Shown here: piece by piece, positions 1-40,105 of the stretch | Numbering within the stretch: position 1 is the first letter of the stretch | Layout of the letters: each line of letters opens with the position of its first letter | DNA from: a virus | Lineage: Duplodnaviria; Caudoviricetes | DNA length: 40,105 bases | Strand: one strand, 5' to 3' | Virus record (IMG/VR): IMGVR_UViG_3300025018_000270 | Location: 1-40,105 of that record | Notes under the pieces: model-generated | What the model saw: the letters and a program-made list of their open reading frames with translations, nothing else | Databases searched by the model: none | Told to the model about the DNA's origin: nothing | Made by a program: the position numbers and the translations under genes

Positions 1-144
1 ACCCGCGCATCGCCGGAGACCCGCGCATCGCCGGAGACCCGCGCATCGCCGGAGACCCGCGCATTGCCGGAGACCCGCGCATTGCCGGAGACCCGCGCAT
101 TGCCGGAGACCCGCGCATTGCCGGAGACCCACGCATTGCCGTAG
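1..144. repeat. 18-bp tandem repeat, 8 units (ACCCGCGCAT[C/T]GCCG[G/T]AG)
   Basis: 3x acccgcgcatcgccggag, 4x acccgcgcattgccggag, 1x acccacgcattgccgtag; encodes V[S/Y]G[D/N]A[R/W] on the minus strand. Confidence 0.98.
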
Positions 145-657: not shown

Positions 658-829
658 GGCGATAACCCTTTTTCCAGCATTCACGGCAAAAGCGCGGGCG
701 GCATGGCATTCGAGATCCGTCCGCTTGGGGATAGAGGTGAAGGCGCCGGATTACCGGCTGGCCTTCAACCCTGTCGTGATAATCGAGATCCTCGGTCGCG
801 GGGATCGGGGAGAGATAGGGCTCCGTCAT
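650..829 (-). CDS. Small Cys-rich hypothetical protein (59 aa)
   Basis: ATGA overlap with the clamp gene stop; MTEPYLSP...MPCRPRFCRECWKKGYRHE. Confidence 0.65.
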   Translation of the reverse strand: MTEPYLSPIPATEDLDYHDRVEGQPVIRRLHLYPQADGSRMPCRPRFCRECWKKGYRHE

Positions 830-2076
830 ACACGCATGGGCATAAGCACGGTGCGGAAGCCATTGCCCTCCGGCGATGTGATCCGCGTCGGGGCGCCTGC
901 ATCCATCGTCTCGATCAAGAGCGTCTCGCCCTCCGTCACCTCGCAAAGTTCTGCAAGATACCGGCCGTTAAAGCCGATCGTGAAGGGCTCCTTCACACTC
1001 GTTTCCGCCGGGATCCAGGTTGAGGCGGTGAGGATATCCTCGATGCCGGTGGCAGATACCCCCAGCTTCGGCCCGTTCGGGTCGAACGTGAGGCGGATCG
1101 CTTTGGTTTTTCCGCTGTCGGCGGCACTGATCAGGCGCACGGCGCGCGCAAGCTCCTTTCTGCTGACAAGCACGCGCTGATCCTGCTCTGCTGTCGGGAT
1201 AACGCGGCTATAGTCGGGGAACGTGCCATCGATGATCTTGGTCGCGATCGTCACCTTGATCCCGCTCCCGCGCATGGTGAAGGCAAAGGAGATGATTGTG
1301 CCGGCCGCCTGCGGGATGAGCGTCTTGTCGCTGTTCTCCTGCAAGCGCGGGGATATCCCCATGGTTACGCCTCCCTCGATCTTCGGCCGGAGCCGCGCAA
1401 GGAGATTGATCGCCTTGCGCGGGATGATCATGCCGCGCTCCTCGCTCCGCGCGCTGTTCGAGAATGGCAGGATCTTTGCCAGCACGTCGGCGCGTGGCGC
1501 TGCGATCGGCGAGACATAAAGCCGGCGGCCATCGGTCGAGACGGCGCGGAGCGAGTGGGTCGAGACGGTCGAGGGTTCGTCAACCGTGTGCAGATAGAGC
1601 CCGTTCAAGTAATAGCGGGTTTCATCGGTCGAGCATGCCCGGCTGGCGCGGAGCATATCGTCAATGTGATCGAGCGAGAGTTGCACCTCGTCCGCCTCAT
1701 TGCGCGTGGTCTGGATCCGCGGGAAGTCCTCATAGGGCAAATGCTTTACCTGGAGGTCGAGCCGGCCGGAGCGAAACGCGATCGCGGTCTTTTCCTTGTC
1801 GATCGTCGCTTTCTCGATCTCCACCATGCTGTCGCCAAGATTAAGCACGCGCGCGATGCGATCGGGCGCGCCGATCGTGATCGCCTCCAGCCCGCTCGCA
1901 TCCTCAACGCCGATCTCGGCGCGCACTTCCATATCGAGATCCGTGCCGATCAGGATCATGCCATGCACAAGTGGCATGATCGCCATGTTGCCAAGGATCG
2001 GGATCGTGTTGCGCTTCTCCATCACAAGCGATGCGATATTCATCGCCTGGGTGAGGCGCTGCCGGTCAACTTTCAT
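826..2076 (-). CDS. dnaN: DNA polymerase III beta sliding clamp (phage-encoded, 416 aa)
   Basis: KRNTIPILGN, GTDLDME, STDETRYYLNGLYL, VSTDGRRL, IDGTFPDYSRVIP, IGFNGRYL, C-terminal VLMPMRV; start re-called at ATG 2076 behind GAAGGAG. Confidence 0.95.
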   Translation of the reverse strand: MKVDRQRLTQAMNIASLVMEKRNTIPILGNMAIMPLVHGMILIGTDLDMEVRAEIGVEDASGLEAITIGAPDRIARVLNLGDSMVEIEKATIDKEKTAIAFRSGRLDLQVKHLPYEDFPRIQTTRNEADEVQLSLDHIDDMLRASRACSTDETRYYLNGLYLHTVDEPSTVSTHSLRAVSTDGRRLYVSPIAAPRADVLAKILPFSNSARSEERGMIIPRKAINLLARLRPKIEGGVTMGISPRLQENSDKTLIPQAAGTIISFAFTMRGSGIKVTIATKIIDGTFPDYSRVIPTAEQDQRVLVSRKELARAVRLISAADSGKTKAIRLTFDPNGPKLGVSATGIEDILTASTWIPAETSVKEPFTIGFNGRYLAELCEVTEGETLLIETMDAGAPTRITSPEGNGFRTVLMPMRV

Positions 2077-2077
2077 T

Positions 2078-2326
2078 CTATGCTCCTTCGTAAGCGCGGG
2101 CGTAGCACGTCGGGCAAAGATAGCCGCGCTGCCCCATGGGGTTAATCTTGGTGCGTTTCCATCCGGCGATGCGCGCGGCCTCGCGCGCCTTGCTGGATGC
2201 GGTGTCGAAGTCGCGCGCCTCGCCGCCGGGCGCTGCGGTCTGATGGGTGCGGCACCAGTTGGACGGCTTGCCTTCCTTCGTGCGGCCGCCCTCGGCATGG
2301 TCGCAAGTGATATAGATCTGGATCAT
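2078..2326 (-). CDS. Small putative Zn-binding protein
   Basis: CDH...C...CPTC; ATGA overlap with the upstream gene; abuts the clamp RBS. Confidence 0.75.
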   Translation of the reverse strand: MIQIYITCDHAEGGRTKEGKPSNWCRTHQTAAPGGEARDFDTASSKAREAARIAGWKRTKINPMGQRGYLCPTCYARAYEGA

Positions 2327-5445: not shown

Positions 5446-6408
5446 GTGCCAGGCGAGACAATCGATACCCAGGCAATCCGCGATCGCTATCGGATCTCCG
5501 ACGTTGCGGCGCGGCACACAAAGCTGACGCGCTCCGGCCGCGAGTTCAAGGGGCTCTGTCCGTTCCACCAGGAACGCTCTCCGTCGTTTTTCGTGGTCGA
5601 CACAAAGGGCTTTGCTCAATGCTTCGGGTGCGGCTGGAACGGGGACATAATCCGCTTCGTCATGCAAGCGGATGGGCTGTCTTTCGTCGATGCCTGCGCC
5701 GCCATTACCTCCGGAGATCTGCCGCTGGTCGATCAGCAAGCCTTGCGCAAGGCGCGCGAGGAGGATGAGGCGACAAAGCTGCGCGCGATCGAGCGCGCGG
5801 GCGAGATATGGCGCGGATCCGTGCCGCTCCGTGGCACGCTGGGCGAGCGATACCTCCTCTCTCGCGGGATCGAGGTCATGCCCAAGCGGTTCCGGTTCGC
5901 GGTGATCCCGTCCTGGTATGATGATGCAACCGGCGAATGCGGCCGCGATCGGCCGGCGGTCGTGTGCCTCATCACTGATGCGGCGGATAAGGGGATCGGG
6001 ATCCAGCGCATATTCCTCGCCGATGATGGCCTGGGCAAGGCTCCGGATATGAAGGTGCCCAAGCTGTCGTTCGGTCGCCCGGCTGGCGGCGCGATCAGGC
6101 TCGGCCGTATGGCTGGGGATCATGTCATCGTGGTCGAGGGGCCGGAGGATGGCGCGACGGTATCGATGATGCGGCCGGATCAACCCGTGTTCGTGTGCTG
6201 CGGGACGAGCATGATGCCGCTAGTCCAGTTCCCGCCGGAGATCCGGCGCGTCACTATCGGCGCGGATAACGGCAAGGCGGGCATGGCCGCCGCGCAAAAG
6301 GCGCGTGAGGCCTACATGGATAGAGGGCTGGAGGTGCGGACGGTCTATCCGGATCCGGCGTTCGCTGATTGGAATGATGAGTTGAGAGGAGTGAAAAGGA
6401 ATGTCTAG
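5446..6408 (+). CDS. DNA primase (CHC2 Zn finger + Toprim)
   Basis: GLCPFHQERSPSF...CFGCG...GDII; VVEGPEDG, GADN, DWND; start re-called at GTG 5446. Confidence 0.93.
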   Translation: MPGETIDTQAIRDRYRISDVAARHTKLTRSGREFKGLCPFHQERSPSFFVVDTKGFAQCFGCGWNGDIIRFVMQADGLSFVDACAAITSGDLPLVDQQALRKAREEDEATKLRAIERAGEIWRGSVPLRGTLGERYLLSRGIEVMPKRFRFAVIPSWYDDATGECGRDRPAVVCLITDAADKGIGIQRIFLADDGLGKAPDMKVPKLSFGRPAGGAIRLGRMAGDHVIVVEGPEDGATVSMMRPDQPVFVCCGTSMMPLVQFPPEIRRVTIGADNGKAGMAAAQKAREAYMDRGLEVRTVYPDPAFADWNDELRGVKRNV

Positions 6409-6898
6409 TTTTCAATCAAGAAGCGGGTCAACGCGAGATGATTGGCAGACGCCTATGGGAATAATTGAAGCGCTCGGCCCGTTTGACTTAGATGTGGCAG
6501 CAAATTGCGAGGTTCCTAATAGATGCGCACGTCGCGGCCTCACGCTGGAGGATGATTGTTTAACTGCGTCTTGGGGGTGCGCCTTTGTCTGGTGCAATCC
6601 GCCCTATGGTGGGGCGGCAAAACTTTGGCTCGCGCGGATGGCCGATCATGGGAACGGGATTGCTCTTGTACCGCCCAGGATGGGGGCAAAATGGTTTCAG
6701 GATATCGTGCTAGATACGGCGGATACGTTGCTTTTCATGCGTGGTCGGGTGTCATTTATCAATGCAGCAACAGGCTTGCCCGCCGGAGGAAATAATGCGG
6801 ATAGCGTGCTCATAGGGTGGGGTGAAACTGCATCCGTACGGCTAACGTCGTGCGCAATTAAGGGTAAGATCTGGAGGGCTCGCGGTCAGTGAGAGGAG
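6383..6898. repeat. 9-bp direct repeats TGAGAGGAG (6383-6391 and 6890-6898) flanking the MTase gene
   Basis: Exact copies 507 bp (169 codons) apart, in the same codon phase in the primase and DUF3987 genes. Confidence 0.8.
6401..6892 (+). CDS. dam: Phage DNA N6-adenine methyltransferase (Dam family, PF05869-like)
   Basis: DDWQTP, FDLDVAA, VWCNPPY, GIALV, RGRVSF; visibly more AT-rich with atypical codons (ATA, TTA, CTA, AGA). Confidence 0.9.
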   Translation: MSSFQSRSGSTRDDWQTPMGIIEALGPFDLDVAANCEVPNRCARRGLTLEDDCLTASWGCAFVWCNPPYGGAAKLWLARMADHGNGIALVPPRMGAKWFQDIVLDTADTLLFMRGRVSFINAATGLPAGGNNADSVLIGWGETASVRLTSCAIKGKIWRARGQ

Positions 6899-8401: not shown

Positions 8402-9301
8402 ATGGAATATCAACCCGATATCGTCGTCTATCATGACAAGTGCATGGATGGTTTTACCGCCGCTTGGGCGGTGTGGAAGCGCTGGGGCGATGAGCCGTCC
8501 TATGTGGCGCTCAATTACGGCATGGAGCCCGATCTCGATTGCCGCGGCAAGCATATCCTGATCGTGGATTTCTCGTTCAAGGCTGACGTCCTGGCGCGGC
8601 TGGTGGCCAATGACGGCGCCGCGTCGGTGCTGTTCCTCGATCATCACAAGACGGCGCGTGAGGATCTGGCGCCGTTCCTTTTCGAGGAGAGTTTTCCCGG
8701 CGCAATCGGCGCTGGTGACGTCCTCGGCATGCTGCGAGATCTCGATGAGTTGCGCCGCCCGCCGATCCTCGCCGTGTTTGACATGGAACGCTCCGGCGCG
8801 GGTATGGCTTGGGATTTCTGTTTCGGATCCCACACGCGGCCCAAGCTGGTCGATCTTGTCGAGGATCGGGATCTCTGGCGCTTCGCCTTCGGAGACGAAA
8901 GCAAGTGGCTCCACCTCGCGCTGTCGAGCGGTGTCATGGATTTTGCACGTTGGGATAGGCTGACTAGCTATCCTTATGATGAGATCAGGACGGGCGAGGC
9001 AATCGCGGCCTATCGGGATAGCTTGGTCGAGGAAATCGTGGAGCGTGCCGTCCCGCGCTGGATCGGTGGCAAGCGCGGGATGCTGGTCGATTGTCCCTAT
9101 GGCCTTGCCAGCGACGTCGGCAACCGCCTGCTCGATCTGCATCCTGATGCGGAGTTCGCGGCGGCGGAGGTGCGCGGCCCCGATAGCGTCACCTATTCAC
9201 TGCGCTCGCGCGACGATCGTGCGGACGTGTCGGAGATAGCGCGCAAATGGGGTGGAGGCGGTCATCGCAATGCGGCTGGCTTCGAGGTGCCGCGGTCATG
9301 A
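8402..9301 (+). CDS. DHH/DHHA1 phosphoesterase (nanoRNase NrnB-like)
   Basis: YHDKCMDGF, VDFS, LDHHKT, RSGA, EDRDLWRF, YSLRS, GGGGHRNAAGF. Confidence 0.93.
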   Translation: MEYQPDIVVYHDKCMDGFTAAWAVWKRWGDEPSYVALNYGMEPDLDCRGKHILIVDFSFKADVLARLVANDGAASVLFLDHHKTAREDLAPFLFEESFPGAIGAGDVLGMLRDLDELRRPPILAVFDMERSGAGMAWDFCFGSHTRPKLVDLVEDRDLWRFAFGDESKWLHLALSSGVMDFARWDRLTSYPYDEIRTGEAIAAYRDSLVEEIVERAVPRWIGGKRGMLVDCPYGLASDVGNRLLDLHPDAEFAAAEVRGPDSVTYSLRSRDDRADVSEIARKWGGGGHRNAAGFEVPRS

Positions 9302-10175: not shown

Positions 10176-10598
10176 ATGTCATTTTTTCGCGAGAATGAGA
10201 TCAAGTCTGTGCGCAAGGCGCGGGCCTGTGGCGGGTGCGGAAAGCTGATCGAGGCGGGATCCCCCGCCGTGGATCTGGCGTCTCACTATGACGGTGATTT
10301 CTGGAGCGCGACGTATCATCGCGAGTGCCGCAAGGCGGAGATCGACCTGAACCATGAACATCAAGCGGAGGAGTGGATGCCGCTCCAAGATTTCGATCCG
10401 GAGGATGATTGGGAGGTCATCCTGGAGGATCATCCCGTTGTCGCTGCACGGCTGGGTATCACGCAAGAGCGGATCGATGAGATCCGCGAGACGGCGCGCC
10501 GCATGCGCGAGCATTGGCGATTGGATGCGGAGAGGCGTGAAGCGGAGCGGAAAGCTGCGATAGCGGCGCTCCCCTCTATTCATCGCGCTGCACCATGA
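10176..10598 (+). CDS. Zn-binding phage hypothetical protein (140 aa)
   Basis: RKARACGGCGKLI...DGDFW...HREC; GAGGAGG RBS before ATG 10176. Confidence 0.8.
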   Translation: MSFFRENEIKSVRKARACGGCGKLIEAGSPAVDLASHYDGDFWSATYHRECRKAEIDLNHEHQAEEWMPLQDFDPEDDWEVILEDHPVVAARLGITQERIDEIRETARRMREHWRLDAERREAERKAAIAALPSIHRAAP

Positions 10599-11206
10599 CC
10601 GGCTTTGATCCAACTGCATTCCTCGGCGCGGATCCGGAGCCTGCCGCCACGGCTGGCGACGCTTTGGCGGCGCCTGCGCCTGCTCCCGACGCGCCAGAAA
10701 TGGCGGAAAACCGCGACGTCTGGCGTGATGGTGGGCAAAGTGTCGCCACTGCCGCCACTGCCGCCGCTCCTATGGCGGCGCCATGCGAGTTGCTGGCGGA
10801 TCAACCGTTTGCCGCGGATCTTAATCGCCTGTTCCGTTCGCCGGAGAGCGAGCGGTTTACGGGCGAGGCGTGGCGGCGGCTGTGCCTGGCGCTGCACGCT
10901 TTCACGGTCGAACATACTCAGGCCTGCCTGGACGCGGGCTGGAGCGCTCGCGAGATCTATGCGGTGGGCAAGGGCGCGTTTCTTTCGGATAAGGGATCGA
11001 CGTCGGATCCCCGCGCCCTGATGTTCATCGGATCCCCTGCGGCCGCCTTTGTGGTTGGCAAGCGCGAGGTGGTCGAGATCTGTTCCGATTGGATCCAGTT
11101 CGTCGCTGACAGGCATGGCACGCGCCAGCGCCTGATGCGCGATCACAATCCGATCAATCACTCCCCGCTCCGCTACGGGCTGGTCTGGGAAGTGCCGCTT
11201 TTCTAG
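10595..11206 (+). CDS. Hypothetical replication-region protein carrying ori-type repeats
   Basis: ATGA overlap; SVATAATAA is encoded by TGYCGCCAC repeats; LDAGWSAREIY segment. Confidence 0.75.
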   Translation: MTGFDPTAFLGADPEPAATAGDALAAPAPAPDAPEMAENRDVWRDGGQSVATAATAAAPMAAPCELLADQPFAADLNRLFRSPESERFTGEAWRRLCLALHAFTVEHTQACLDAGWSAREIYAVGKGAFLSDKGSTSDPRALMFIGSPAAAFVVGKREVVEICSDWIQFVADRHGTRQRLMRDHNPINHSPLRYGLVWEVPLF

Positions 11207-11380
11207 TCGATCAGGGTGGCGACACCTTGGCGACAAACTGGCGACAGCAAGGCGCTGATCATGCTTTTACCAACAAGGTAAAGGGCTGGCTATCCTATTG
11301 TCCAATCAATGAAAAACAGGGTGAAAATGATGTGTCGCCACATAGTGCCGCCATAGGTGGCGACAGTGGCGACAGTTTTC
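11207..11380. other. Candidate replication origin: TGGCGACA iterons around an AT-rich spacer
   Basis: TGGCGACA at 11217, 11228, 11239 (11-bp period), 11358, 11367; inverted TGTCGCCA at 11333 and TGCCGCCA at 11346; AT-rich 11262-11330; at the end of the replication module. Confidence 0.65.
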
Positions 11381-11386
11381 CCGCGC

Positions 11387-11415
11387 TTGCGGCGTGCGGG
11401 CGGATCGGTGATAAG
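11387..11415 (+). promoter_or_regulatory. Candidate promoter for the packaging operon
   Basis: TTGCGG-N17-GATAAG, then GGAGG RBS and ATG 11434; same geometry as 14468-14496. Confidence 0.4.
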
Positions 11416-11433
11416 CGGGAACGGAGGTGCTGC

Positions 11434-11694
11434 ATGGCGCAAGAGAAACGGGATTACATGGTGATCGATGCGAACGGCCGGGTCGTGCTTTCGCGGATCG
11501 ATATGGCGAATGATTTCACGGTGGCGAATGCGAGCAATGGCTTGGGCTGGAGCGGCGGCGCCGCTCCGTTCAAGGTCTATGCTTCGATCGTCGGCGCGCA
11601 AGGCGGCTATGGCCTGATCGGCGAAGTGCCGGCCGGAGAGGCGCGCTCCTTCACGGATACCGGGATCGCTCCGGATCTGGAGCAAGCGCCATAA
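11434..11694 (+). CDS. 86-aa protein resembling an internal beta-sandwich-like domain of the tail nozzle
   Basis: GGAGG RBS; WSGGAAPFKVY...GGYGLIGEV...SFTDTGIAPDL..P aligns by eye to nozzle WSAPAGATYHRVF...GAFGFVGEV...SFVDDNIEPDL..GP. Confidence 0.75.
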   Translation: MAQEKRDYMVIDANGRVVLSRIDMANDFTVANASNGLGWSGGAAPFKVYASIVGAQGGYGLIGEVPAGEARSFTDTGIAPDLEQAP

Positions 11695-12638
11695 GCGGCA
11701 AGGGAAAGCCGGGCGAGGAGCCCGACATTCCCAAGTGCGATTTACCGGCACGCAAAAAGCCGGGGCGCGCTGCGAAGGCGCGCGCCAAGGCCAAGCCTAA
11801 GCCGGATCCCGATGCGGAGATCCCGCGCTGGGATCCCAAAGAGGAGGCGCGCAAGGCTCGCGAGGAGGTCGCTCGCAAGTCTGGCAAGGGCAAGCTGATC
11901 GAGGCGCCGGAGGGTGCTGTCGTCATTCCCGGCATATCCAAGCGCAAGCGGGTGAAGCCGGAGCCCGCCGCGCCGGTCGAGGAGAAGCGCGAAACCAAGC
12001 GCGAGAGATCTGCGCGGCTGCGCGCGGAGATCAAGGCGGAGGAGGGTGATCCGGAGGCACGCGCGATCGAGCGCGCGCGGGCTATCATCGCGGAGGCCCG
12101 CGCGCGCGATGGCATTGCGATGACCGATGAATTGTTTTTCGAGATGCTGGTTCTTGTGGCTGGCGGCATGACGTTGCGGCAAGTCTGCCGCATGCCGGGC
12201 ATGCCGTCGCGCACCTCGTTTCATATGTTCGTCAACTGCGAGGATCAGGCTTTGGCCAAGCTGCGGGCCGAACGCCTCGCGCGCGCGCGCGGCCTTGGCC
12301 TGGAGATGATCGCGGAGGAGGTGGTCGATATTGTCGATGACGGATCGAACGATTGGATCGAGCGCGAGAAGGACGGTGCGACGGTCATGGAGTTGGATCG
12401 CGAGCATATCGCGCGGAGCAAGTTGCGCGCGGAGATGCGTCTCAAGCTGCTCGCGGTATGGGAGCCGACGCGCTACGGTGCGCGGATCAATCATGCCGAT
12501 GCCGACGGCAAGCCGCTCCGCGGCGATGGCGTGACGGCTTCGGATCTCGCGATCGGGCTCGCCAAGCTGGTCGAGGCGGCGCGCCGCAATGATTTGGCGC
12601 TGCCCGGCGGCGTCACGATCGATCAGGATCCGGCCTGA
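11691..12638 (+). CDS. terS: Terminase small subunit (Sf6-like core) with a Lys/Pro-rich N-terminal extension; probable ATA start (first canonical start is GTG 11952)
   Basis: GMTLRQVCRMPGMPS, ARAR...AEEVVDIVDD, EHIARSKLR..RLKLLAVWEPTRYG; frame open from ATA 11691 with GGAG 8 nt upstream. Confidence 0.85.
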   Translation: MSGKGKPGEEPDIPKCDLPARKKPGRAAKARAKAKPKPDPDAEIPRWDPKEEARKAREEVARKSGKGKLIEAPEGAVVIPGISKRKRVKPEPAAPVEEKRETKRERSARLRAEIKAEEGDPEARAIERARAIIAEARARDGIAMTDELFFEMLVLVAGGMTLRQVCRMPGMPSRTSFHMFVNCEDQALAKLRAERLARARGLGLEMIAEEVVDIVDDGSNDWIEREKDGATVMELDREHIARSKLRAEMRLKLLAVWEPTRYGARINHADADGKPLRGDGVTASDLAIGLAKLVEAARRNDLALPGGVTIDQDPA

Positions 12639-12790
12639 TGCTGCTCGATCCCTCTCGCCGCGACATTTGCCGCGTTTGCTTCACTGATCAATATACCTGG
12701 AGGGAATTAAACCTGCATCCTGGGCAGGATCATCGCTGCTATCGCTGCTTTAATGAGGCGCGCTATCTAGGTTGGGGTTTGATCTTGTGA
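12638..12790 (+). CDS. Small CxxC..CxxC Zn-finger protein (50 aa)
   Basis: Hand translation MLLDPSRRDICRVCFTDQYTWRELNLHPGQDHRCYRCFNEARYLGWGLIL; TGATG overlap with terS and GTGA overlap with terL. Confidence 0.6.
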   Translation: MLLDPSRRDICRVCFTDQYTWRELNLHPGQDHRCYRCFNEARYLGWGLIL

Positions 12791-14388
12791 TTGAGGTGAT
12801 CGAGCAATTTGCCGGGCTCTCGATCTCGGACATGGAAGCGGTGATCCGCGCCATGCCGGCGGCTGATCGCAAGATTCTGGAGGAGATCGCTCTCCGCGAC
12901 TATGCCAATTGGCGGCCGCTGCCAGGGCCGCAAAGCGAAGCCTATTACAGCAAGGCCGATGTGATCGGATACGGCGGTGCGGCTGGCGGCGGCAAGACGG
13001 ATCTCATGTGCGGGCTCTCGCTCACCAGGCACAAGCGTTCGCTGATCGTGCGCCAGGATGGTCAACAGTTGTTCGGGATCCGCGAGCGCCTGGGCGAGAT
13101 CCTCGATACCAACAACGGGTGGAACGGTCAGGATCGCGTCTGGCGCCATGACAAGGGCGTGATCGAGTTGCGCGGGATCCCGCACCTCGGCGATGAAAAG
13201 AAACTGCAAGGCCGTCCGCACGGCCTCAAGGGCTTCGATGAGGCAACCGAGTTGCTGGAGGCGCAAGTCCGGTTCATCATGGGCTGGATGCGGTCGGAGG
13301 ATCCATCCGTCCAGCCGCAAGCCCTGCTCACCTTCAACCCTCCCACTACGATCGAGGGTCGCTGGGTGGTCAAGTATTTCGCGCCATGGCTGGACAAGAA
13401 ACACTCCAACCGCGCGGAGCCCGGCGAGTTGCGCTTGTTCACCACGATCGCGGGCGAGGATATCGAGACGGAGGACGATCGGCCGTTTGTGCTATTCGGC
13501 GGCGAGCAAGTGTTCGATTTCGATCCTGCCGATTTCAAGCCGGAGGAGATCGTGCGGCCCAAAAGCCGCACGTTCATTCCCTCCAAGGTGTCGGATAATC
13601 CCTACTACATGCGGACGGGATATGTCGCGACGATCCAGGCGATGCCGGAGCCGCTCCGCTCGCAAATGCTCTACGGGGATTTCGAGGCTGGTATGGAAGA
13701 TGACAAATGGCAGGTGATCCCGTCGCATTGGATCGAGGCGGCCATGGATCGCTGGCGGCCGCGCAACCGCAAGGGGCCAATGGATAGCATGGGGGTCGAT
13801 CCGGCGATGGGCGGATCTGACAAGTTCGTGATCGCCCGCCGGCATGGCACCTGGTTTGATGATCTCCTCTCTTTCCCTGGCAAGGACGTGCCTGACGGGC
13901 CGACGGGCGCGGGCTTGTGCATCGCCAACCGGCGGGATCAGGCGCCTATCCATATCGACGTGATCGGCTGGGGATCTTCGACCTACGATTTCCTCAATTC
14001 CAATGACGTCCATGCGGTCAAGATCAACGGTGCGGACAAGTCTTTCGAGTTGTCGCGCGATGCCGGCATGCGCTTCGCCAACCGCCGCGCGGAGTTGGTA
14101 TGGCGGATGCGCGAGGCGCTGGATCCGGCCGCTCCTGATCCGATCGCGCTGCCCGATGACAGTGATCTCCTCTCGGATCTTTCCGCCTATCGCTACAAGG
14201 TGACGGCGCAAGGGATCCTGATCCGGAGCAAGGAGGAGATGATCAAGGAGATCGGCCGCTCGCCGGACAAGGGTGATGCGGTATGCTATGCGCTCACCGC
14301 GACAATGAAGCGGGCAACGCTGCAAGAGCAATTCCAGGCACAAGCGGAGGATCGTGCGTTCGATCGTTTCAGCGAGTTGGGCTTGTGA
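12787..14388 (+). CDS. terL: Terminase large subunit (BPP-1-like)
   Basis: WRPLPGPQ, YGGAAGGGKTD (Walker A), FDEATE (Walker B), TFNPP, GVDPAMGGSD, GRSPDKGDA; exact start uncertain (12772/12787/12796). Confidence 0.96.
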   Translation: MIEVIEQFAGLSISDMEAVIRAMPAADRKILEEIALRDYANWRPLPGPQSEAYYSKADVIGYGGAAGGGKTDLMCGLSLTRHKRSLIVRQDGQQLFGIRERLGEILDTNNGWNGQDRVWRHDKGVIELRGIPHLGDEKKLQGRPHGLKGFDEATELLEAQVRFIMGWMRSEDPSVQPQALLTFNPPTTIEGRWVVKYFAPWLDKKHSNRAEPGELRLFTTIAGEDIETEDDRPFVLFGGEQVFDFDPADFKPEEIVRPKSRTFIPSKVSDNPYYMRTGYVATIQAMPEPLRSQMLYGDFEAGMEDDKWQVIPSHWIEAAMDRWRPRNRKGPMDSMGVDPAMGGSDKFVIARRHGTWFDDLLSFPGKDVPDGPTGAGLCIANRRDQAPIHIDVIGWGSSTYDFLNSNDVHAVKINGADKSFELSRDAGMRFANRRAELVWRMREALDPAAPDPIALPDDSDLLSDLSAYRYKVTAQGILIRSKEEMIKEIGRSPDKGDAVCYALTATMKRATLQEQFQAQAEDRAFDRFSELGL

Positions 14389-14440
14389 TCTGCTTCGGAT
14401 CCGAATAGGCCTGCGATCGGGATCCTCTCCCAGAGCCTTG

Positions 14441-14476
14441 GCCCGTCACCTGTAAACGGTGGCGGGCTTGTTTTTT
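14441..14476 (+). terminator. Rho-independent terminator after terL
   Basis: GCCCGTCACC-loop-GGTGGCGGGC followed by TTGTTTTTT. Confidence 0.75.
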
Positions 14477-14496
14477 GGGCAAGGGCAAGCGATAAG
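14468..14496 (+). promoter_or_regulatory. Candidate promoter for the head operon
   Basis: TTGTTT-N17-GATAAG overlapping the terminator U-tract. Confidence 0.35.
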
Positions 14497-14528
14497 TCGC
14501 ACGTCTGCCGCGTTTGAGGGATGGCCCT

Positions 14529-14735
14529 ATGTGTTCTGCTCCTGATGTTCCCGCTCCGGTGTCTCGCCAGGATGCACGCATGCCGGAGCGGCCTGCCCGT
14601 CCAGGCATGGATGGTGATCGCAGCCGCAAGCGCCGCGGCTATGCTGCGCTGCTCTCGTCAACGCCTGCCGGTGCGATGGGCTCGCCTGCCACTACCGCCA
14701 ACGCTGGCGGATCCTCTCCGACGCTGGGCGGCTGA
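14529..14735 (+). CDS. Small pre-portal virion-associated protein (68 aa)
   Basis: MCSAPDVPAP...RKRRG...LLS...G...TLGG, typical of the small gene preceding the portal in this podovirus group; GAGG RBS. Confidence 0.8.
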   Translation: MCSAPDVPAPVSRQDARMPERPARPGMDGDRSRKRRGYAALLSSTPAGAMGSPATTANAGGSSPTLGG

Positions 14736-14738
14736 TCC

Positions 14739-16541
14739 GTGGCAAAGGGCGGGACGCTGACTGTCGCCGCAAAAGAGCGGAGCCCGTGGGCCGATCGCAA
14801 CATGCGAACGGCCCAACCTGTAACGTGGGCGGAGAAACAGGCTGAGGCGCTCAAGGCGATGCGCCAGCCGTTCGAGCAAGATATCGTCCAGATATCCGCG
14901 CTCGCTCAACCCAACCGCTCGCGGTTCATCGCGTCCATGTCGACGACGCAACGCGGCAAGGCAACGCGGTCGAACAACCTCTATGACGGGCACGCTATCC
15001 GCTCGTTCCGCTATCTGACCAATGGCATGTATAGTGGGCTGTCATCGCCTAACCGGCCATGGTTCCGGTTCAAGCTGCCTGACGATGATCTGACCAAGTT
15101 CCATTCGGTCGCGCGCTGGTTGGCTGACGCGCAAGATATTGTCGCGAAGATGCTGGCGACGTCCAATTTCTACACGGCCGCCAAGGTCGGTTATGGCGAG
15201 ATCGGCCTGTTCGGCACCGATGCCTGCATCATGACGGAGGCTCTCGATCACGAAACGGGTCTGACCTATCCCGTCTGCTTCCCGCAAACCTTTGGCGAGT
15301 ATTGGCTGGGGCTCAATGAGCAACTGGAGCCGGAGCGCCTCATGCGCCAGGGGCAAATGACGGCGCGCCAGATGGTGCAGGCCTTCGCGGTCGACCGGCT
15401 GGATCCGCGCAATGTCGATTGGAACAAGCTGTCGCAGCCGGTGATCTCTGCCTGGGATCAGGGCAATTACGATACTGAGTTTCCGGTCATGGCTCTGATC
15501 GAGCCGAATGACGACTATGATCCGCGCCGCGCCGATGCGACCGGCATGCCGTGGAAAATGTGCAAGTGGGAGCCGGGTGCGCGTGCGGCTGGCGAGAAAA
15601 TGCTGGAGACGCGCGGGTTTCACTCGCAACCGTTCTGGGCTCCGCGCTGGGAAGTGACGGGATCCGACGTCTATGGCTATGGCCCCGGCCATGATGCGCT
15701 GGGCGACATGCGGGTTCTGCAATTGCAGGGCAAGCGCAAGGGCGAGGCAACCGACTATGCGGTAAAGCCTCCGATGGTGGCGCCCTCGTCTGTGCGCCTC
15801 AAGTTCTCGCCGGGCTCTGTCAGCCATGTGGCCAATGTCGACCAGGCCAACGTCAAGCCGCTGTTCGAGGTCGACTATCGCGCGATCGAGATCATCGGCC
15901 GCGATGCGCAAGAGATCCGCAATGCGATCGATGAGGCGACTTATGCGCGCCTGTTCATGGCAATCTCCAATCTTGAGGGTTCGGCGGATCGCACGGTGGC
16001 GGAGATCGCTGCGCGCGAGGAGGAGAAGCTGACGCAACTTGGCCCGGTGATCGAGCGGGTCAATAATGAGAAACTGGCGATTGCTCTGGATCGTGCGTTC
16101 GATATCGCGGCGCGCAACAACATGCTGCCGCCTCCGCCGGAGGAATTGCAGGGCATGCCGATCGAGGTCGATTTCATATCGATCCTCGCCCAGGCGCAAC
16201 GCATGATCGGCATGCAGCAAACCGATCGCGCGCTCGCCTTCACTGCGCAGATTAATCAGGTCACGGGAACCACCACGGCAACCGAAAACCTCGATGTGGA
16301 TGAGTTGGTGCGTGACTATTGGGATCGCGCTGGCGCGCCTCCCAAGGGGTTGCGGGATCCGGCGGAGCGCGATGCCGATCGGCAGGCGGCCGCGCAACAG
16401 GCGGCCGCGATGCGCGCGGCGGAGATGGCCAAGGCTGCGCAACCGGCCGCCAATGCCATGCAGACCATGGCGCAAACGCCTGTCGGCGATGGGGAGGCAA
16501 CGCTGTTCGATCGCCTGACCGGCGCGCTGCCGACGGGGTGA
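14739..16541 (+). CDS. Portal protein (podoviral head-tail connector)
   Basis: GMYSGLSSPNRPWF, APRWEVTGSDVYGYGPG, EEKL.QLGPVIER, FISILAQAQR. Confidence 0.96.
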   Translation: MAKGGTLTVAAKERSPWADRNMRTAQPVTWAEKQAEALKAMRQPFEQDIVQISALAQPNRSRFIASMSTTQRGKATRSNNLYDGHAIRSFRYLTNGMYSGLSSPNRPWFRFKLPDDDLTKFHSVARWLADAQDIVAKMLATSNFYTAAKVGYGEIGLFGTDACIMTEALDHETGLTYPVCFPQTFGEYWLGLNEQLEPERLMRQGQMTARQMVQAFAVDRLDPRNVDWNKLSQPVISAWDQGNYDTEFPVMALIEPNDDYDPRRADATGMPWKMCKWEPGARAAGEKMLETRGFHSQPFWAPRWEVTGSDVYGYGPGHDALGDMRVLQLQGKRKGEATDYAVKPPMVAPSSVRLKFSPGSVSHVANVDQANVKPLFEVDYRAIEIIGRDAQEIRNAIDEATYARLFMAISNLEGSADRTVAEIAAREEEKLTQLGPVIERVNNEKLAIALDRAFDIAARNNMLPPPPEELQGMPIEVDFISILAQAQRMIGMQQTDRALAFTAQINQVTGTTTATENLDVDELVRDYWDRAGAPPKGLRDPAERDADRQAAAQQAAAMRAAEMAKAAQPAANAMQTMAQTPVGDGEATLFDRLTGALPTG

Positions 16542-19998: not shown

Positions 19999-20697
19999 AT
20001 GGCTCGCGACAAGGTATCGATCTGCAACGCTGCTCTCGATGAGTTGCCAGCCGATAACATTCAATCGATCGATGATGTGGACAGCGTGGGCGCGCGCGCT
20101 TGCAAGCGCCATTTCCAGAATTGCATCTCCGACATGCTCGGCGATTGGGAGTTCGAGGCCGCTATCCGGCGCCAGGCTCTTGCCCCCACTACAAACGATC
20201 GGGATTATGAGTGGAGCCATGCCTATGTCATGCCTTCCTCGATCTCCTCGCTGCTGCGCGTCCTCCCCTATCGCGCTGCGCTGGATCCTGCGTCAGTAAC
20301 GCTTCTGCCCGGTCAACGGTTGTTCCCTCTGGATTGGGGCTATTTCCCTGAGAATGTCGGGGTTCGGTTCGTCGCGAACAACAACAAGATCTATACCCAT
20401 GAGCCGCAAGCCGTGGTCGAGTTCGTCACGTCGGAGCCGGATCTCGGCCGCATGTCGTCGCTGTTCTCCCGTGCGCTGGAGTTGGAGTTGGCCGCGCGGA
20501 TCTGCATGCCGGTGATCAAGAGCCGGGAGCGCCAGCGCGAATTGATGCGGATGGCGGAGGTCGCGCGCCAGCGCGCGATCGCCGATGATCGCAACAACTC
20601 GCCGGATCGCTATGATACGGTGGCAAGCGAGGAGGCGATGGTGCGCTCTGGCCTGCCTCCGTCGCCGCGCGGTTGGTATAGCGGGGGATATTCCTGA
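19999..20697 (+). CDS. Tail adaptor / tail tubular protein A
   Basis: VSICNAAL..L...I.S.DD...AR.C, W.F.A, W..AY..P, F..AL...LAA.I..P. Confidence 0.88.
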   Translation: MARDKVSICNAALDELPADNIQSIDDVDSVGARACKRHFQNCISDMLGDWEFEAAIRRQALAPTTNDRDYEWSHAYVMPSSISSLLRVLPYRAALDPASVTLLPGQRLFPLDWGYFPENVGVRFVANNNKIYTHEPQAVVEFVTSEPDLGRMSSLFSRALELELAARICMPVIKSRERQRELMRMAEVARQRAIADDRNNSPDRYDTVASEEAMVRSGLPPSPRGWYSGGYS

Positions 20698-21368
20698 TGT
20701 TCCGGCACGGGCTTAACAATTTCAGCAAGGGCGAGATCGGCCCGCAACTCTACGGCCGCGTCGACGTGGCCGCCTACAATGCCGCGGTGCGGCTGGCGCG
20801 CAACGTCGTGATCCTCAAGTATGGCGGGCTCCAGCGCCGCATGGGGACGCGCGTGGTCTATGAAATCCGCGAGCCGGATGCTGGCTGGTCGGATCCCGAT
20901 AGCGAGGCGCGGCTGTTCCCGTTCGAGTTCTCGATCGAGCAAACCTATGCGCTGCTGTTCACGCAAGCGAGCATGCGGCCGCTTGCCTTGGGTGGGGCGG
21001 TGCTGGAGGAGGAGTTGGAGATCCTGGGTATCACAAGCGCCAACGGCGCTGTGGTGACGATCGATTTCCACGATTACGCGGTGGGCGATGAATGGTTCGC
21101 CAGCGGGATCGAGGGCGAGATCGGGGATCTGCTCAATGGCAGGGTGTGGCTGATTACGGAGATTGTCGATGCCGACAATTTCCGGATCAATGCCGATACC
21201 TCTGGGCTGGCGGCCTTCACTGGTGCTGATGGCGGGATCACGCGGGTCGCGGAGCCGGATCCGCCTCCGCCGCCGCCGACTGTGCCTCCGCCATACGTTC
21301 CACCTCCGCCTCCATCGATCGTGCCGCCGGGTGGACGTGGTTTCAGTCCTGATTCCGAGATACCCTGA
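20697..21368 (+). CDS. Tail nozzle (tubular protein B) N-terminal part, with an E1-FCCH-like domain and a poly-Pro tail
   Basis: NFSKGEIGPQLYGRVD..Y...N......GG..RR.GT, RLFPFEFS..QTYAL.F; ITSANGAVVT..H......G..G...LNGR; PPPPPPTVPPPYVPPPPP. Confidence 0.85.
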   Translation: MFRHGLNNFSKGEIGPQLYGRVDVAAYNAAVRLARNVVILKYGGLQRRMGTRVVYEIREPDAGWSDPDSEARLFPFEFSIEQTYALLFTQASMRPLALGGAVLEEELEILGITSANGAVVTIDFHDYAVGDEWFASGIEGEIGDLLNGRVWLITEIVDADNFRINADTSGLAAFTGADGGITRVAEPDPPPPPPTVPPPYVPPPPPSIVPPGGRGFSPDSEIP

Positions 21369-23188
21369 TGGGCGGCCGTCGTCTCTATAGGGTTCCGATG
21401 CCCTACAATGGCCGCGAGTTGCGTGAGATCGATTTCGCGCAATCGTTTGACACAATGTATCTGGCTCACCTCAACTATGAGCCGGGCAAGCTGACGCGCG
21501 AGGATCATGACGATTGGGGTTTTGTCAGCATCCCGTTCGGCCCGACACTCTCCTCGCCAACCGGCGTAGGCGTGACGGCAACGGTCGCGAATACCGATGC
21601 GGGTAATGGCGGCGATGCCTATTTCCCGCGCGCTGCTCGCTACGTCGTTTCGGCCGTCAATGAGGATACCGGGCAAGAGAGCCTGCCCTCGGCGGAGGTG
21701 ACGGCAACGAACGATCTCTCGCTCAAGCGCAATTTCAACACGGTGTCATGGTCGGCGCCGGCTGGAGCAACCTATCATCGCGTATTCAAGGCAAACCTCG
21801 ATGGGGCGTTCGGGTTTGTTGGCGAGGTATTGTCGGGCACTAGCTTTGTGGATGACAATATCGAGCCGGATCTTTCCGACGGTCCGCGCCAGGGGCGGGA
21901 TCCGTTCGCCTCGGCTGGCGACTATCCCTCCACCGTGTTCTTTTTCGAGCAACGCGCCGGTTGGGCGCGCACGATCAACAATCCCAACGCGGTCTATCTG
22001 AGCCGCTCGGCGGATCTGGAGAATATGGATATCTCCCGCCCGCTTGTGGCGGATGATGCAATCACGCTGCGGCTGGTCGCGGAGCGTGTCAACGCGGTCA
22101 ATCAGGTCGTGCCTATGGATGATCTGATCGCGCTGACGTCCGACGGGCCTTTCCGGATCGTGGGGTCGAATGAGGATTACCTGTCCGCCAATCCGCCGCC
22201 GCGCCAGCGTCGGCAAGGGTCGCGCGGGGCGTCACGGGTCAAGGCTGCGATCGCGGATGAGACTGTGTTCTATCTGCCAAACCTCGGTGATGAGGTGCTG
22301 TCGATCGGCTACACGTTCGAGATCGATGGCTATCGGTCAAACAACGTCGCGATCTTCTCGCCGCATTTCTTCGAGGGCTTCGATATCGTCGCCTGGGCCT
22401 ATGCGCGCGAGCCTCTGTCCTGCATCTGGGCGGTGCGCTCCGATGGCAAGCTGCTGTGCTTCACCTGGCAACGCGAGCAAGAGGTCTGGGGCTGGACGCT
22501 GTGCGAGACGGATGGCCGCTATCTCGATGTGTGCGTGATACCGGAACGGCCGGCTGGCGCATTGAAGCCGGAGGATCGGGTCTATTTCATAATCGAGCGC
22601 GAGATCGCTGGCGTCACCCGCCGCTTTGTCGAGCGCATGGCGAGTGCAAAGTGGGAGGATCAGGTCGATGGCTGCTTCCTCGATTGCGCGTTCACGTTCG
22701 TATTCGATGAAGCGCAATCGCAAGTGTTCGTTCCTGTGTTGGCGGGGGCAACGGTCGATATCCTCGCGGATGGCAACGTGTATCAGGCGCGCGAGGTCGC
22801 GGAGGATGGCACGCTGGAGATCGAGTTCCCGGCGAAGATCTGGCATGTCGGCCTGCCTTACGTCTCCACAATCGAGACGCTCCCGCTTGCTCTCCCCAGC
22901 CGGAACGGCGGATCTCGCGCTGGCCGCGTCCAGGACGTTGGCGAGATCGTGTTGCGCGTATTCGAGACGCGCGGTGCGCGCGCCGGGCGCAAGGAGGATG
23001 ATCTGTTCCCGCTCAAGACGCGCCGGCAAGAGCCTCTCGGATCTCCCAAGTCGCTGCTCACCGGGGACTATACGTTCGAGACGCCTCCGGCTGTAAGCCT
23101 GGAGGCGACGGTCTGGGTCAAACAGATTTACCCTCTGCCGATGACGATCTCCTCGATCTTCCTCGATCCGATCGAGCATAATGGCTGA
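21368..23188 (+). CDS. Tail nozzle (tubular protein B) main part
   Basis: PY....L..I.FAQS.D.MY.AH, YPSTVFFFEQR, W.VRSDG.L...T..REQEV.GW, FLDC, HVGLPY.S..ETLP, Q..PLP.TI; TGATG overlap. Confidence 0.9.
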   Translation: MGGRRLYRVPMPYNGRELREIDFAQSFDTMYLAHLNYEPGKLTREDHDDWGFVSIPFGPTLSSPTGVGVTATVANTDAGNGGDAYFPRAARYVVSAVNEDTGQESLPSAEVTATNDLSLKRNFNTVSWSAPAGATYHRVFKANLDGAFGFVGEVLSGTSFVDDNIEPDLSDGPRQGRDPFASAGDYPSTVFFFEQRAGWARTINNPNAVYLSRSADLENMDISRPLVADDAITLRLVAERVNAVNQVVPMDDLIALTSDGPFRIVGSNEDYLSANPPPRQRRQGSRGASRVKAAIADETVFYLPNLGDEVLSIGYTFEIDGYRSNNVAIFSPHFFEGFDIVAWAYAREPLSCIWAVRSDGKLLCFTWQREQEVWGWTLCETDGRYLDVCVIPERPAGALKPEDRVYFIIEREIAGVTRRFVERMASAKWEDQVDGCFLDCAFTFVFDEAQSQVFVPVLAGATVDILADGNVYQAREVAEDGTLEIEFPAKIWHVGLPYVSTIETLPLALPSRNGGSRAGRVQDVGEIVLRVFETRGARAGRKEDDLFPLKTRRQEPLGSPKSLLTGDYTFETPPAVSLEATVWVKQIYPLPMTISSIFLDPIEHNG

Positions 23189-24165: not shown

Positions 24166-26414
24166 TGGCGCGGGTTCCGATCGCAGGCGGCAATCAACTC
24201 CAGCTTGCGCCGATGCAAGAGCGACGGCTGGCCGCTCCTGATTTCTCGGCTGGTGCGCGCGAGGCGGCGGCTGGCCTTGGCGGGCTCGCCAATGCGACAA
24301 TGCGGTTCGCGGAGGAACAGGATGCGCTTCAGGCGCAGCTTGATCAGGCGGCCGCCAAGGCGCTCGATAACGATTATGCCGAATATGAGCGCGAGGTGCT
24401 GCATACCGGCGAGGCCGCGTTCTACACGCAAGAGGGTTTCAATGCCTCGAACATGCGCGAGACGGTCGAGCAACAGTTGGAGGCAAAGCGCCAGGAATTG
24501 CTCGCCAAGGCGTCCAATGATCGCCAGCGTGCAATGGCAGGCGATGCGCTGGAGCGGCGCGTCGGCGCGGCTCGCACGGGGATCTCCACCTATGCGAACA
24601 AGCAATTGCGGGTCGAGGAGACGCGCCAATCCGCGCGCCGGGCGGAGGCGGCCGCAAATGATGCGGTGATCTATTACGATCAGCCGGAGCGGTTTGCGGA
24701 GGAGGTCGCTGTCGGAGAGACGGAGATCCGGACGGAGTTGGCCAAGCAAGGCGCCGCGCCGGAGACGATCAAGGGCGCGGTCGAAAACTGGAGGTCGAGC
24801 GTCTATCGCCGCGTGGCCGACGGGATGATCTCGCGGCTGGAGGTCGAGACTGCAATCTCCTATGTCGCCAGCAACCGCTCCGGCATGACGGAGGCGGATC
24901 AGGCCGCGCTCGATCGCGCGCTCGCTATCCCGCTCAAGGAACGCAAGATCGACGGGCTGGCGGATTATGTCCTGGGCGAGGGGCGCGCGGTCGCGGTCGA
25001 CGCTGATGATGCGGATCCCGGAGATCCGGATCAGCTTGCAGCCGGGTTTGCCTTGCCGATGCCGGTCGAGGGCCGGATCACGTCGGGTTTCGGCAAGCGC
25101 CGCTCGCCCATCCCCGGCGCCAGCACGAACCATGAAGCGCTCGATATCGCTGCGCCCGTCGGCACGCCTATCCGTGCGCAAGCGGCTGGTCGCGTGGTGT
25201 CTGCCAAGGATGAGGGCAAGGCCGGGCTGGTCGTGCGCGTGGATTACGGCAATGGCGTTGTTGCGTCCTATGCCCATATGCAGGGTTTCGACGTCAAGGA
25301 GGGCGATACGGTCAAGCCTGGGCAGGCTCTCGGCGGTGTTGGGGTGACGGGCAACACAAGCGGGCCGCACGTCCATTATACCTTGCGGGTCAATGGCGAG
25401 AAGGTCGATCCGACAAAGTTTGCAGGCGTGACCGGCCGCCCGTCTGGCGGCCGCCGCACGCCTACGCAGCAAGCGGGCATGTCGCGCGACGAGGCGATGC
25501 GCCGGGTCGATGATCTCAATCTTCCTCTGGAGGAGGAGCGCGCTCTCAAGTCGGAGATCACGGCGCGGTTTGCTCAGGACAATGCGATCGTCAATGATCG
25601 GCGCGAGCGAGCCCGTGAGAGCGCGCTGGAGATCCTCAACCGCGCGGATGCGTCGGGCACGCCGCTATCGCGCGAGAGCGCAATCCCTGCCTCTGTGTGG
25701 GATGCCCTGTCGCCAAGCGATGCCATGGCTATCCGCAATGACATTCGCCGCAATGCGGCCGGCCCCGCGCGCGAGACGGATCTGGGTGCCTATCTGGCGC
25801 TGTCGGATCTCTATGCCACGAACCCGGCGGGCTTCGCGCGCCTCAATCCAGCCGAGTATCTCGATCGCCTGTCCAAGGAGGATTTCGAGCAAGTGTTCGG
25901 GACGTGGCGGCGCGATGCGCTCCAGGGCGCGATCAAGGGCTCTGAAAAGCAAGTGACGCATGATCGGATCCGATCGGTTATGAGCCCGGCGCTGGAGGCG
26001 GCTGGGCTCACCACTACGGGGATCCCTACAAAGGACAAGGAGGCGCGCGATGCCATGGCGGGCCGGATCTACCGCGCGCAAAAGGCGGTGCAGCGCGAGG
26101 TTGATCTGTGGCAGCGTGCCAACCCCGGCAAGGTGATGCCTGACGATCTGATCCGGAGCGTGGTCGACCGGCAACTTACTCCGACGCGCCGCGCGGATGA
26201 TGCTCCGGAGGATAGCGGGTTTCTGGGCCTTGGCGGCAATACGCCAACCTATGTCCCGTGGTTTGAGCGGCGCGCTCTTGGCGAGGGCGGCGCTGTGGTG
26301 CAGATACCGCGGGCGGATCGTGATCGGCTGGCGCGGATCGGCCGGCAAGTGCTGGGCCGGGATCCAACCCCGCAAGAGATCACGCGCGCCTATTTCCTGG
26401 AGTTGCAACAGTAA
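24165..26414 (+). CDS. Ejection protein with an internal M23 peptidoglycan peptidase domain
   Basis: Helical ejection-protein body; PVEGRITSGFG.R...HEALDIAAPVGTP...YAHM...GQ..G.VG.TG..SGPHVHY...VDP at ~25050-25420. Confidence 0.9.
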   Translation: MARVPIAGGNQLQLAPMQERRLAAPDFSAGAREAAAGLGGLANATMRFAEEQDALQAQLDQAAAKALDNDYAEYEREVLHTGEAAFYTQEGFNASNMRETVEQQLEAKRQELLAKASNDRQRAMAGDALERRVGAARTGISTYANKQLRVEETRQSARRAEAAANDAVIYYDQPERFAEEVAVGETEIRTELAKQGAAPETIKGAVENWRSSVYRRVADGMISRLEVETAISYVASNRSGMTEADQAALDRALAIPLKERKIDGLADYVLGEGRAVAVDADDADPGDPDQLAAGFALPMPVEGRITSGFGKRRSPIPGASTNHEALDIAAPVGTPIRAQAAGRVVSAKDEGKAGLVVRVDYGNGVVASYAHMQGFDVKEGDTVKPGQALGGVGVTGNTSGPHVHYTLRVNGEKVDPTKFAGVTGRPSGGRRTPTQQAGMSRDEAMRRVDDLNLPLEEERALKSEITARFAQDNAIVNDRRERARESALEILNRADASGTPLSRESAIPASVWDALSPSDAMAIRNDIRRNAAGPARETDLGAYLALSDLYATNPAGFARLNPAEYLDRLSKEDFEQVFGTWRRDALQGAIKGSEKQVTHDRIRSVMSPALEAAGLTTTGIPTKDKEARDAMAGRIYRAQKAVQREVDLWQRANPGKVMPDDLIRSVVDRQLTPTRRADDAPEDSGFLGLGGNTPTYVPWFERRALGEGGAVVQIPRADRDRLARIGRQVLGRDPTPQEITRAYFLELQQ

Positions 26415-39741: not shown

Positions 39742-40105
39742 TCATGGGGTGGGTTCCTTTGTCACAGGCGCATCAAAACCGTGGATACGGGACTGCGCTT
39801 CAAGCAGATCAAGAATAGCGAAAGTCTCGTCACCAAGCGGAGTCCCGCCACGCGTCCGCGCCCAATGCTCGCGGGCTTGCTCAAACGAAAAATACCGGCA
39901 ACCCGCGATGACGCGCGGGCCTTCAGGCGTGGGTGCAATGGTAAATGTGTAATTGTCGCTGCGAACAGCAGTCAGGCCGACTTTGTAGACCCGCGCATCG
40001 CCGTAGACCCGCGCATCGCCGTAGACCCGCGCATCGCCGTAGACCCGCGCATCGCCGTAGACCCGCGCATCGCCGTAGACCCGCGCATCGCCGTAGACCC
40101 GCGCA
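39742..40105 (-). CDS. Hexapeptide-repeat protein, C-terminal part (continuation of 1..320)
   Basis: Hand translation ...(VYGDAR)6 VYKVGLTAVRSDNYTFTIAPTPEGPRVIAGCRYFSFEQAREHWARTRGGTPLGDETFAILDLLEAQSRIHGFDAPVTKEPTP-stop. Confidence 0.88.
   Translation of the reverse strand, partial: ARVYGDARVYGDARVYGDARVYGDARVYGDARVYGDARVYKVGLTAVRSDNYTFTIAPTPEGPRVIAGCRYFSFEQAREHWARTRGGTPLGDETFAILDLLEAQSRIHGFDAPVTKEPTP
39989..40105. repeat. 18-bp tandem repeat, 6.5 identical units ACCCGCGCATCGCCGTAG
   Basis: Direct reading; same unit family as 1..144. Confidence 0.98.

Follow-up and report, generated by a model that had tools for sequence, protein, structure and literature searches.

A free-standing homolog of the nozzle insert domain encoded ahead of the terminase genes of a BPP-1-like podophage

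Why does a podophage genome carry, directly before its terminase genes, a small gene whose product resembles a piece of the phage's own tail nozzle? The window, that is, the whole stretch of DNA analysed here, is a virus record 40,105 bases long with a CheckV completeness of 93%, and the initial annotation described the small gene as a free-standing paralog of an internal nozzle domain. The genes follow the order of BPP-1-like podophages: primase, helicase, terS, terL, portal, protease, capsid, adaptor, nozzle, internal virion proteins, tail spike and endolysin. Both ends of the window (1-140 and 39980-40105) lie within a tandem array of one 18-nt unit, and this shared end repeat suggests that the record is probably a whole circular assembly, which probably closes inside a repeat-bearing reading frame. 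No integrase was found among the 47 ORFs scanned against PHROGs. The gene for the DNA polymerase III beta clamp (826-2298, minus strand), which has ~75 extra N-terminal residues, finds its best plasmid matches in alphaproteobacteria at ~32% identity, a weak hint at the host. The replication block includes a DNA methyltransferase-like gene (6401-6892) and a DHH phosphoesterase gene (8402-9301), and 26414-33547 encodes a protein of 2377 aa, probably an ejection protein, that has an LPD22 domain and whose residues 813-859 match an ADP-ribosyltransferase (ART-PolyVal) below threshold.

The small gene and the nozzle insert domain

The ORF at 11434-11694 on the plus strand is present with the 86-aa product first quoted for it. 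Its codon score is +0.46 per codon in frame versus at most +0.01 in the other five frames, and its GC3 (0.74) is on par with that of the phage's remaining genes, so that it has the character of an ordinary gene of this phage. The ribosome-binding site claimed for it was also found, the GGAGG core at 11423-11427 being part of a Shine-Dalgarno (SD) sequence, GGAGGT (11423-11428, plus strand), within the 18 nt that separate the -10 box from the ATG. Among 14 starts tested, this one has the strongest anti-SD pairing (-10.8 kcal/mol), which gives no ranking of copy number because the major capsid gene scores only -6.0. Judging from these sequence signals, the protein is likely to be made in quantity late in infection. 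None of the 17 listed runs holding the sequence is an RNA run. Four sequencing runs over the small gene have no substitutions among those listed, and a contig from a second habitat that spans 11403-11737 has 57 substitutions and one in-frame 3-nt insertion. Neither an N-terminal signal nor a membrane stretch is visible in the protein. It is acidic, the net charge being -3 to -8 in 16 of 16 free-family members checked, and the nozzle insert domain is equally so (net -6). A -1 frameshift fusion to terS was ruled out, as the ORF contains no X XXY YYZ-type site.

The nozzle itself is encoded by a split gene. The N-terminal half, with a proline-rich tail (20697-21368, plus strand; phrog_376 profile positions 9-108), overlaps at ATGA with the C-terminal half (21368-23188, plus strand), which is of the BPP-1 Bbp13 / Carin-1 type (phrog_376, E 8.5e-126; 34% to Bbp13; 8CK1, E 2.5e-63). 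The nozzle is split in 15 of 49 locus rows, representing nine distinct records including this phage, and the split is conserved in a clade; the genes of BPP-1 and Jess A are unsplit, and that of phage A1002 is split in another manner according to the accessible text of PMC13730344. The insert domain occupies residues ~58-177 of the C-terminal half (21539-21898, plus strand) and is predicted to be a seven-strand, circularly permuted Fn3 domain. The counterpart of the free protein, placed initially at 21638-21886, was located there as residues 91-173 of the ORF at 21368-23188.

The two are homologous by several measures. BLASTP aligned the free protein with the nozzle segment at 22/69 identities (32%; pairwise E 4e-8), and when all 745 stop-to-stop frames in the window were searched, it recovered the nozzle at E 4e-6, the next match having an E of 6.6. 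The local alignment score was 87, while 2000 shuffles gave a mean of 32 (sd 4.9, maximum 62). In hhalign, 15 free proteins versus 21 nozzle domains reached a probability of 98.3 and an E of 2e-14 over 73 columns (query 7-86), and the alignment originally made by eye therefore proved significant between profiles. At the DNA level, blastn of the small gene versus the nozzle copy gave no match longer than 14 nt, which agrees with the earlier statement that this is no fresh duplication.

Residues Y8, N26-D27, W39, G60-x-I-G63, F73-x-D75, P80-D81 and P86 are common to the free protein and the insert of Bbp13-type (PHROG 376) nozzles. However, the free protein is the product of a separate gene and has no counterpart of the first strand of the insert (about 21560-21580). 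The E-S-x-x-S motif, 90-100% conserved in nozzles, is absent from the free form, whereas R6, D12 and P45 are invariant in the free family alone. By sequence homology (hhalign and profile matches to nozzles), the free protein belongs with the nozzle insert, or tip / IG1-like, family, but it lacks the seven strands and ESxxS of that family. It is no PHROG 376 nozzle, a protein of 600-1000 aa with a beta-propeller and platform, having 86 aa, no PHROG match and a sandwich only.

AlphaFold2 predicted the free protein confidently on its own as a six-strand permuted-Fn3 sandwich (pLDDT 92) and the nozzle segment as seven strands (pLDDT 90), of which the first is the additional one. The top two solved-structure matches were the same for both models, namely SPO1 capsid chain 9VEL_C and the crAss001 muzzle IG1. 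The nozzle domain matched 9VEL_C at Z 9.2 (rmsd 3.4, 103 aligned) and IG1 at Z 7.5 (rmsd 3.0, 106 aligned), whereas the values for the free protein, Z 5.7 (rmsd 2.8, 81 aligned) and Z 5.2 (rmsd 3.3, 84 aligned), lie below 8, in a range that may reflect merely a common arrangement, and a shared fold shows no function. By these common matches and the correspondence of strands, the free protein has the same permuted topology as the insert. Foldseek against the PDB gave no match at E <= 0.001 for either model, and a sequence search of solved structures with the free family gave none. Among predicted viral structures, the best match to the free protein was a stabilization (nozzle) protein (E 2.8e-4, TM 0.65), followed at weaker E by tail connector, major tail and major capsid proteins; matches across several virion proteins suggest that the module occurs on multiple kinds of them. 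The ESM Atlas yielded clusters without names (96-144 aa, best score 0.93) and weak matches to crAss_MUZ, which are leads only.

The nozzle-domain profile matched Fn3 structures (3MPC and 7JGU) at E 3e-4 to 1e-3. Profile positions 62-112 aligned with 3MPC 12-65, and positions 14-60 aligned, weakly, with 3MPC 45-90; these two out-of-order pieces point to a circular permutation in the nozzle domain. The permuted Fn3 model (window 21509-21910) also aligns with alpha-latrotoxin 339-457 (Z 6.0, rmsd 4.2) and with alpha-latrocrustotoxin (Z 5.5), in both cases as a shared fold only.

Where on the nozzle does the insert lie? In T7, according to the accessible text of PMC6702177, a loop of propeller blade 3 carries the nozzle tip, which lies distally and points to the outer membrane, and the fibre dock comes after the propeller. 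The tip of A1002 gp42 (124-231) lies inside the propeller (PMC13730344), and the crAss001 muzzle IG1 (163-292) lies between propeller blades 2 and 3, below the propeller (PMC10172136), as far as these sources were available. From these layouts and the IG1 match, the insert domain is likely, by analogy, to be the distal tip. A fibre dock was rejected, because the insert sits in the early part of the propeller, the place of the tip or IG1 in T7, A1002 and crAss001. The insert is variable, and the corresponding stretch of the Carin-1 nozzle fails to align.

A family of free proteins and its origin

A search of 5.8 billion proteins gave eight more proteins of 85-87 aa with 60-86% identity to the free protein, and throughout these the start and the final proline are identical. 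When 1.84 billion representatives were searched exhaustively, 14 matches at E <= 0.001 emerged, consisting of 11 short free proteins (85-158 aa) and three long proteins with Fn3-like repeats, and a family-profile search among longer proteins gave two matches, both nozzle-like by sequence. The free-standing status of distant members is that of the database protein calls; their shared short N-terminus and loss of ESxxS make them unlikely to be cut-off nozzle genes. One member, P0024, has ~70 extra, helical-looking N-terminal residues and is a possible fusion. The reading frame is intact in every free homolog seen, down to ~32% pairwise identity, which rules out a decaying fragment, and the fold-defining and family-specific residues are invariant in 15-17 members at 32-87% identity. 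PHROGs, Pfam and NCBIfam hold no family for the free protein (P0001). No paper on a free nozzle-tip protein was found in a literature search that included the accessible text of a counter-defence review (PMC13728456) and in which subscription papers were thinly covered. Free nozzle-tip proteins are a real, old family without a prior name.

The gene is patchily distributed. A family-profile search of 36 whole related phage records gave a single match in 26 of them, always in frames of at least 345 aa and at the nozzle position where checked; a free copy was found in none of the 36, which include nine of nine near-complete records, BPP-1 and Jess A. There was likewise none in 401 sampled genomes from the class of a Brevundimonas record, where the seven matches lie in frames of at least 432 aa. 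In 50,697 phage records, tblastn of P0001 gave no match, and tblastn of P0023 gave 33 records, all with nozzle-type genes bar two weak unrelated rows, and no free copy. Viral-contig scans with P0001, A1, P0023, A5, P0022 and terS returned, among the matches listed, only this phage or none, a metagenome scan returned the window's own contig only, and a genome scan with A5 returned none. The small gene is rare and accessory. Standalone homologs, which the initial annotation had proposed to seek in other phages, thus exist as a family of free proteins but were found in none of the 36 related phage records.

A tree built from 20 free proteins and 23 nozzle domains places all the free ones on one side of a branch with 99/95 support; it omits nine nozzle loci whose first half is unalignable through insertion or divergence. 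A core-only tree of 15 free versus 21 nozzle rows supports the branch at 95/87, the trees having few columns and no root, and the free set having been gathered for its similarity to P0001. Free proteins share on average 47% identity with one another and nozzle domains 44%, compared with 28% for pairs of a free protein and a nozzle domain. Grouping of seven close free proteins with the window's own nozzle was rejected (p-AU 0.00035), and the free protein is 30% identical to its own nozzle, within the 23-33% range for other nozzles; both results reject a recent paralog. Our reading of these sequence data is that the family may go back to one old excision, not to a duplication in this phage. The earlier idea of an excised Fn3/Ig-like nozzle domain kept as a separate protein accordingly holds for a nozzle-derived free domain, but not for a derivation from the phage's own nozzle lineage.

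The long homologs P0037 and P0038 have, by eye, an additional domain between the first strand and the remainder, an insertion point that is exactly where the free protein begins. The ancestor may have been cut from a nozzle gene at this frequent insertion point, between the first and second strands. The excised piece would have become a gene in its own right, in which R6, D12 and P45 are invariant, and in this lineage it would have been placed at the head of the packaging transcript.

The start of the packaging transcript

The small gene heads the terS/terL operon, as first noted, and is the first gene before terS. The terminase small subunit gene with a K/P/A-rich N-terminal extension (11691-12638, plus strand; PF20901, phrog_1482) precedes that of the large subunit (12772-14388, plus strand; phrog_2, phrog_979). 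Five relatives share this gene order at a capsid identity of 75-79%; in them the homolog of the gene at 10595-11206 is followed directly by terS, and in a DNA alignment with four of them the ATG of the small gene stands in the column of their terS ATG. The terS ATG of the relatives lies 6-7 nt past a -10 box and has no SD sequence (L025:3604-3641, L064:3834-3871, L035:3984-4022, L028 and L026:698-736), and their terS appears to be leaderless. A candidate late promoter, TTGCGG-17 nt-GATAAG, lies at 11387-11415 on the plus strand of the window. A scan of 10500-15000 for consensus promoters gave 0 sites, but the geometry TTGC..-17-GATATT/GCATAT precedes terS in five of five relatives examined; the promoter first proposed for the small gene thus stays a candidate solely by virtue of this geometry, conserved in the relatives.

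The terS of the window keeps the N-terminal extension found in the five relatives, including its DIPKC motif. The frame has no ATG, GTG or TTG between 11514 and 11951 (none before 11952), and as the extension has no usual start codon, a standard ORF caller misses 11691-11951, a segment with a codon score of +0.27. SD-like sites are found at both ATA 11691, which overlaps the TAA of the small gene, and ATT 11727. One of these two non-ATG codons is the probable start of terS, and translation would be coupled from the small gene to terS. With the small gene in place, terS has likely changed from a leaderless gene to the second of two coupled genes, with a non-ATG start, in which case the small gene would be translated strongly from its leader, and terS would follow by weak coupling. 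Two close relatives appear to share this layout, and the upstream over-call of P0011 reads like translated upstream DNA of the window.

Upstream of the operon, a cluster of TGGCGACA/TGTCGCCA repeats with a conserved GGGCTGGCTATCCTATTGTC element occupies 11217-11374. It is conserved in four relatives as TGGCTACA repeats, and one run lacks the 9-nt unit at 11357. Repeats of TGGCGACA are found in both orientations at 10741-10760 as well as 11217-11374, and the gene at 10595-11206 contains an inverted repeat set with 26-nt arms that are 88% complementary. The repeat region is possibly origin-like or a packaging-control element.

Possible roles and comparison with known systems

We tentatively favour the view that the free protein is an optional accessory of the virion surface, because its close structural contexts are all virion proteins and because its gene, which has a strong start, comes first on the morphogenesis transcript. 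The protein would dock onto the outside of the particle via a virion protein, possibly by accepting a strand of its partner into the edge vacated by the missing first strand, and would contribute a module for surface adhesion or stabilisation. The two top solved matches, which it shares with the nozzle domain, are both virion proteins, and its best predicted viral match is a nozzle protein, with connector, tail and capsid proteins weaker. The strongest SD pairing of the 14 starts and the frames kept intact down to ~32% identity agree with a virion role. Its patchy presence (0/36 relatives) fits optional decoration proteins, which it also resembles in its late, morphogenesis transcript and in being dispensable, to judge from absence in the 36 related records. 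On the other side, it is a single domain without a recognisable anchor that folds confidently alone, its Z values are below 8, SD pairing is a poor guide to copy number (-6.0 for the major capsid gene), and the genomic context is that of this phage, with partial context from two close relatives. A complex prediction with the free protein and two copies of nozzle residues 1-445 gave no answer (score 0.00) and weighs neither way.

The patchiness, the small size and the position at the head of the operon are just as compatible with an anti-defence gene. An intracellular decoy, made first and strongly from the late promoter, that occupies a sensor or restriction factor for the nozzle-tip fold without activating it is possible, if doubtful; it suits a small, acidic, accessory gene placed ahead of all structural genes, although the nozzle domain is just as acidic (-6). 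Nozzle-sensing immunity of this kind exists in Avs13, which reads structure and not sequence, but according to the accessible text of PMC13581612 the conserved core folds are what Avs sensors bind, variable extensions staying unbound, which weakens the idea for Avs13. The insert is indeed variable, as the Carin-1 stretch shows, and the free protein does not follow the nozzle of its own phage (30%; AU p 0.00035) and lacks one strand. It is rather unlikely that, as a counter-defence, such a nozzle-tip mimic, placed before the entire packaging and tail operon so as to be made first, saturates a pattern receptor that recognises the nozzle. We consider it quite improbable that the protein is released at lysis to bind the surface target of the tip and keep progeny from firing on debris. 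The T7 tip does point toward the outer membrane (PMC6702177, accessible text) and strong late translation is inferred, but action at the surface before lysis is precluded by the lack of a visible signal or membrane stretch, the surface of the protein has diverged from that of the cognate tip, and the separate tail spike (33560-35524) is a likelier receptor binder.

A role as an assembly chaperone or timer, capping nozzle monomers at a tip-to-tip interface and delaying the hexamer until packaging ends, is no less improbable. T7 nozzle subunits meet at the platform, propeller and tip in the accessible text of PMC6702177, and the small gene would by position be expressed ahead of the nozzle gene; however, the gene is missing from this position in five relatives of the same gene order, so that normal assembly does not need it, and the domain lies at the end distant from the portal and adaptor. 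For the same reason, a timer that keeps tail parts off the portal, as initially suggested, is unlikely, since the domain maps to the distal tip in T7 and crAss001. Very improbable, finally, is a cis element, that is, an ORF kept since its translation sets terS output by coupling, the protein being minor: the ORF takes up the position of the terS start, with a stop codon overlapping the probable ATA start of terS, but residues invariant in 15-17 members (32-87% identity) would be needless in a leader peptide.

Whichever role applies, a surface module of the podophage nozzle exists as an independent, long-conserved gene family, here caught inserted exactly at the terS start codon. If it is a virion add-on, it offers a small, stable handle on what the nozzle tip binds. 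A decoy would directly oppose the recently described immunity that senses core virion proteins, and the counter-defence reading, if true, would imply an unrecognised sensor of the tip fold and make free-standing pieces of virion proteins a general search route to such decoys.

Ig-like and Fn3 modules are known to be shuffled between virion proteins, and free Ig-like decoration proteins are known as well; phage L Dec and T4 Hoc are optional ones. T4 Hoc, T5 pb10 and phage L Dec are like the free protein in being optional, small or modular products of late genes with surface-type beta folds. Unlike it, they have a defined capsid-binding part or oligomer, and none of them is known to derive from a nozzle tip. 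Canonical Fn3 domains are similar to the nozzle domain by profile, and three long proteins with Fn3-like repeats match the free protein, but the strand order is permuted in the nozzle domain, the free form has six strands, and a Pfam Fn3 family was found for none of 15 free-family members at E <= 1, so that the free protein is no canonical Fn3. Residues 279-401 of 9VEL_C, which we take from its chain length to be the SPO1 major capsid protein, are the best solved match for both models, but they are a covalent part of the capsid chain. The nozzle model aligns with residues 161-292 of the crAss001 muzzle, in which IG1 is 163-292 (PDB 7QOK), but identity to IG1 is 10-11%, IG1 lies within a chain of 1,361 residues, and no free form is described in the accessible text of PMC10172136. 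One permuted Fn3 fold thus links the nozzles of BPP-1 type, the IG1 domain of the crAss muzzle and a domain of the SPO1 capsid.
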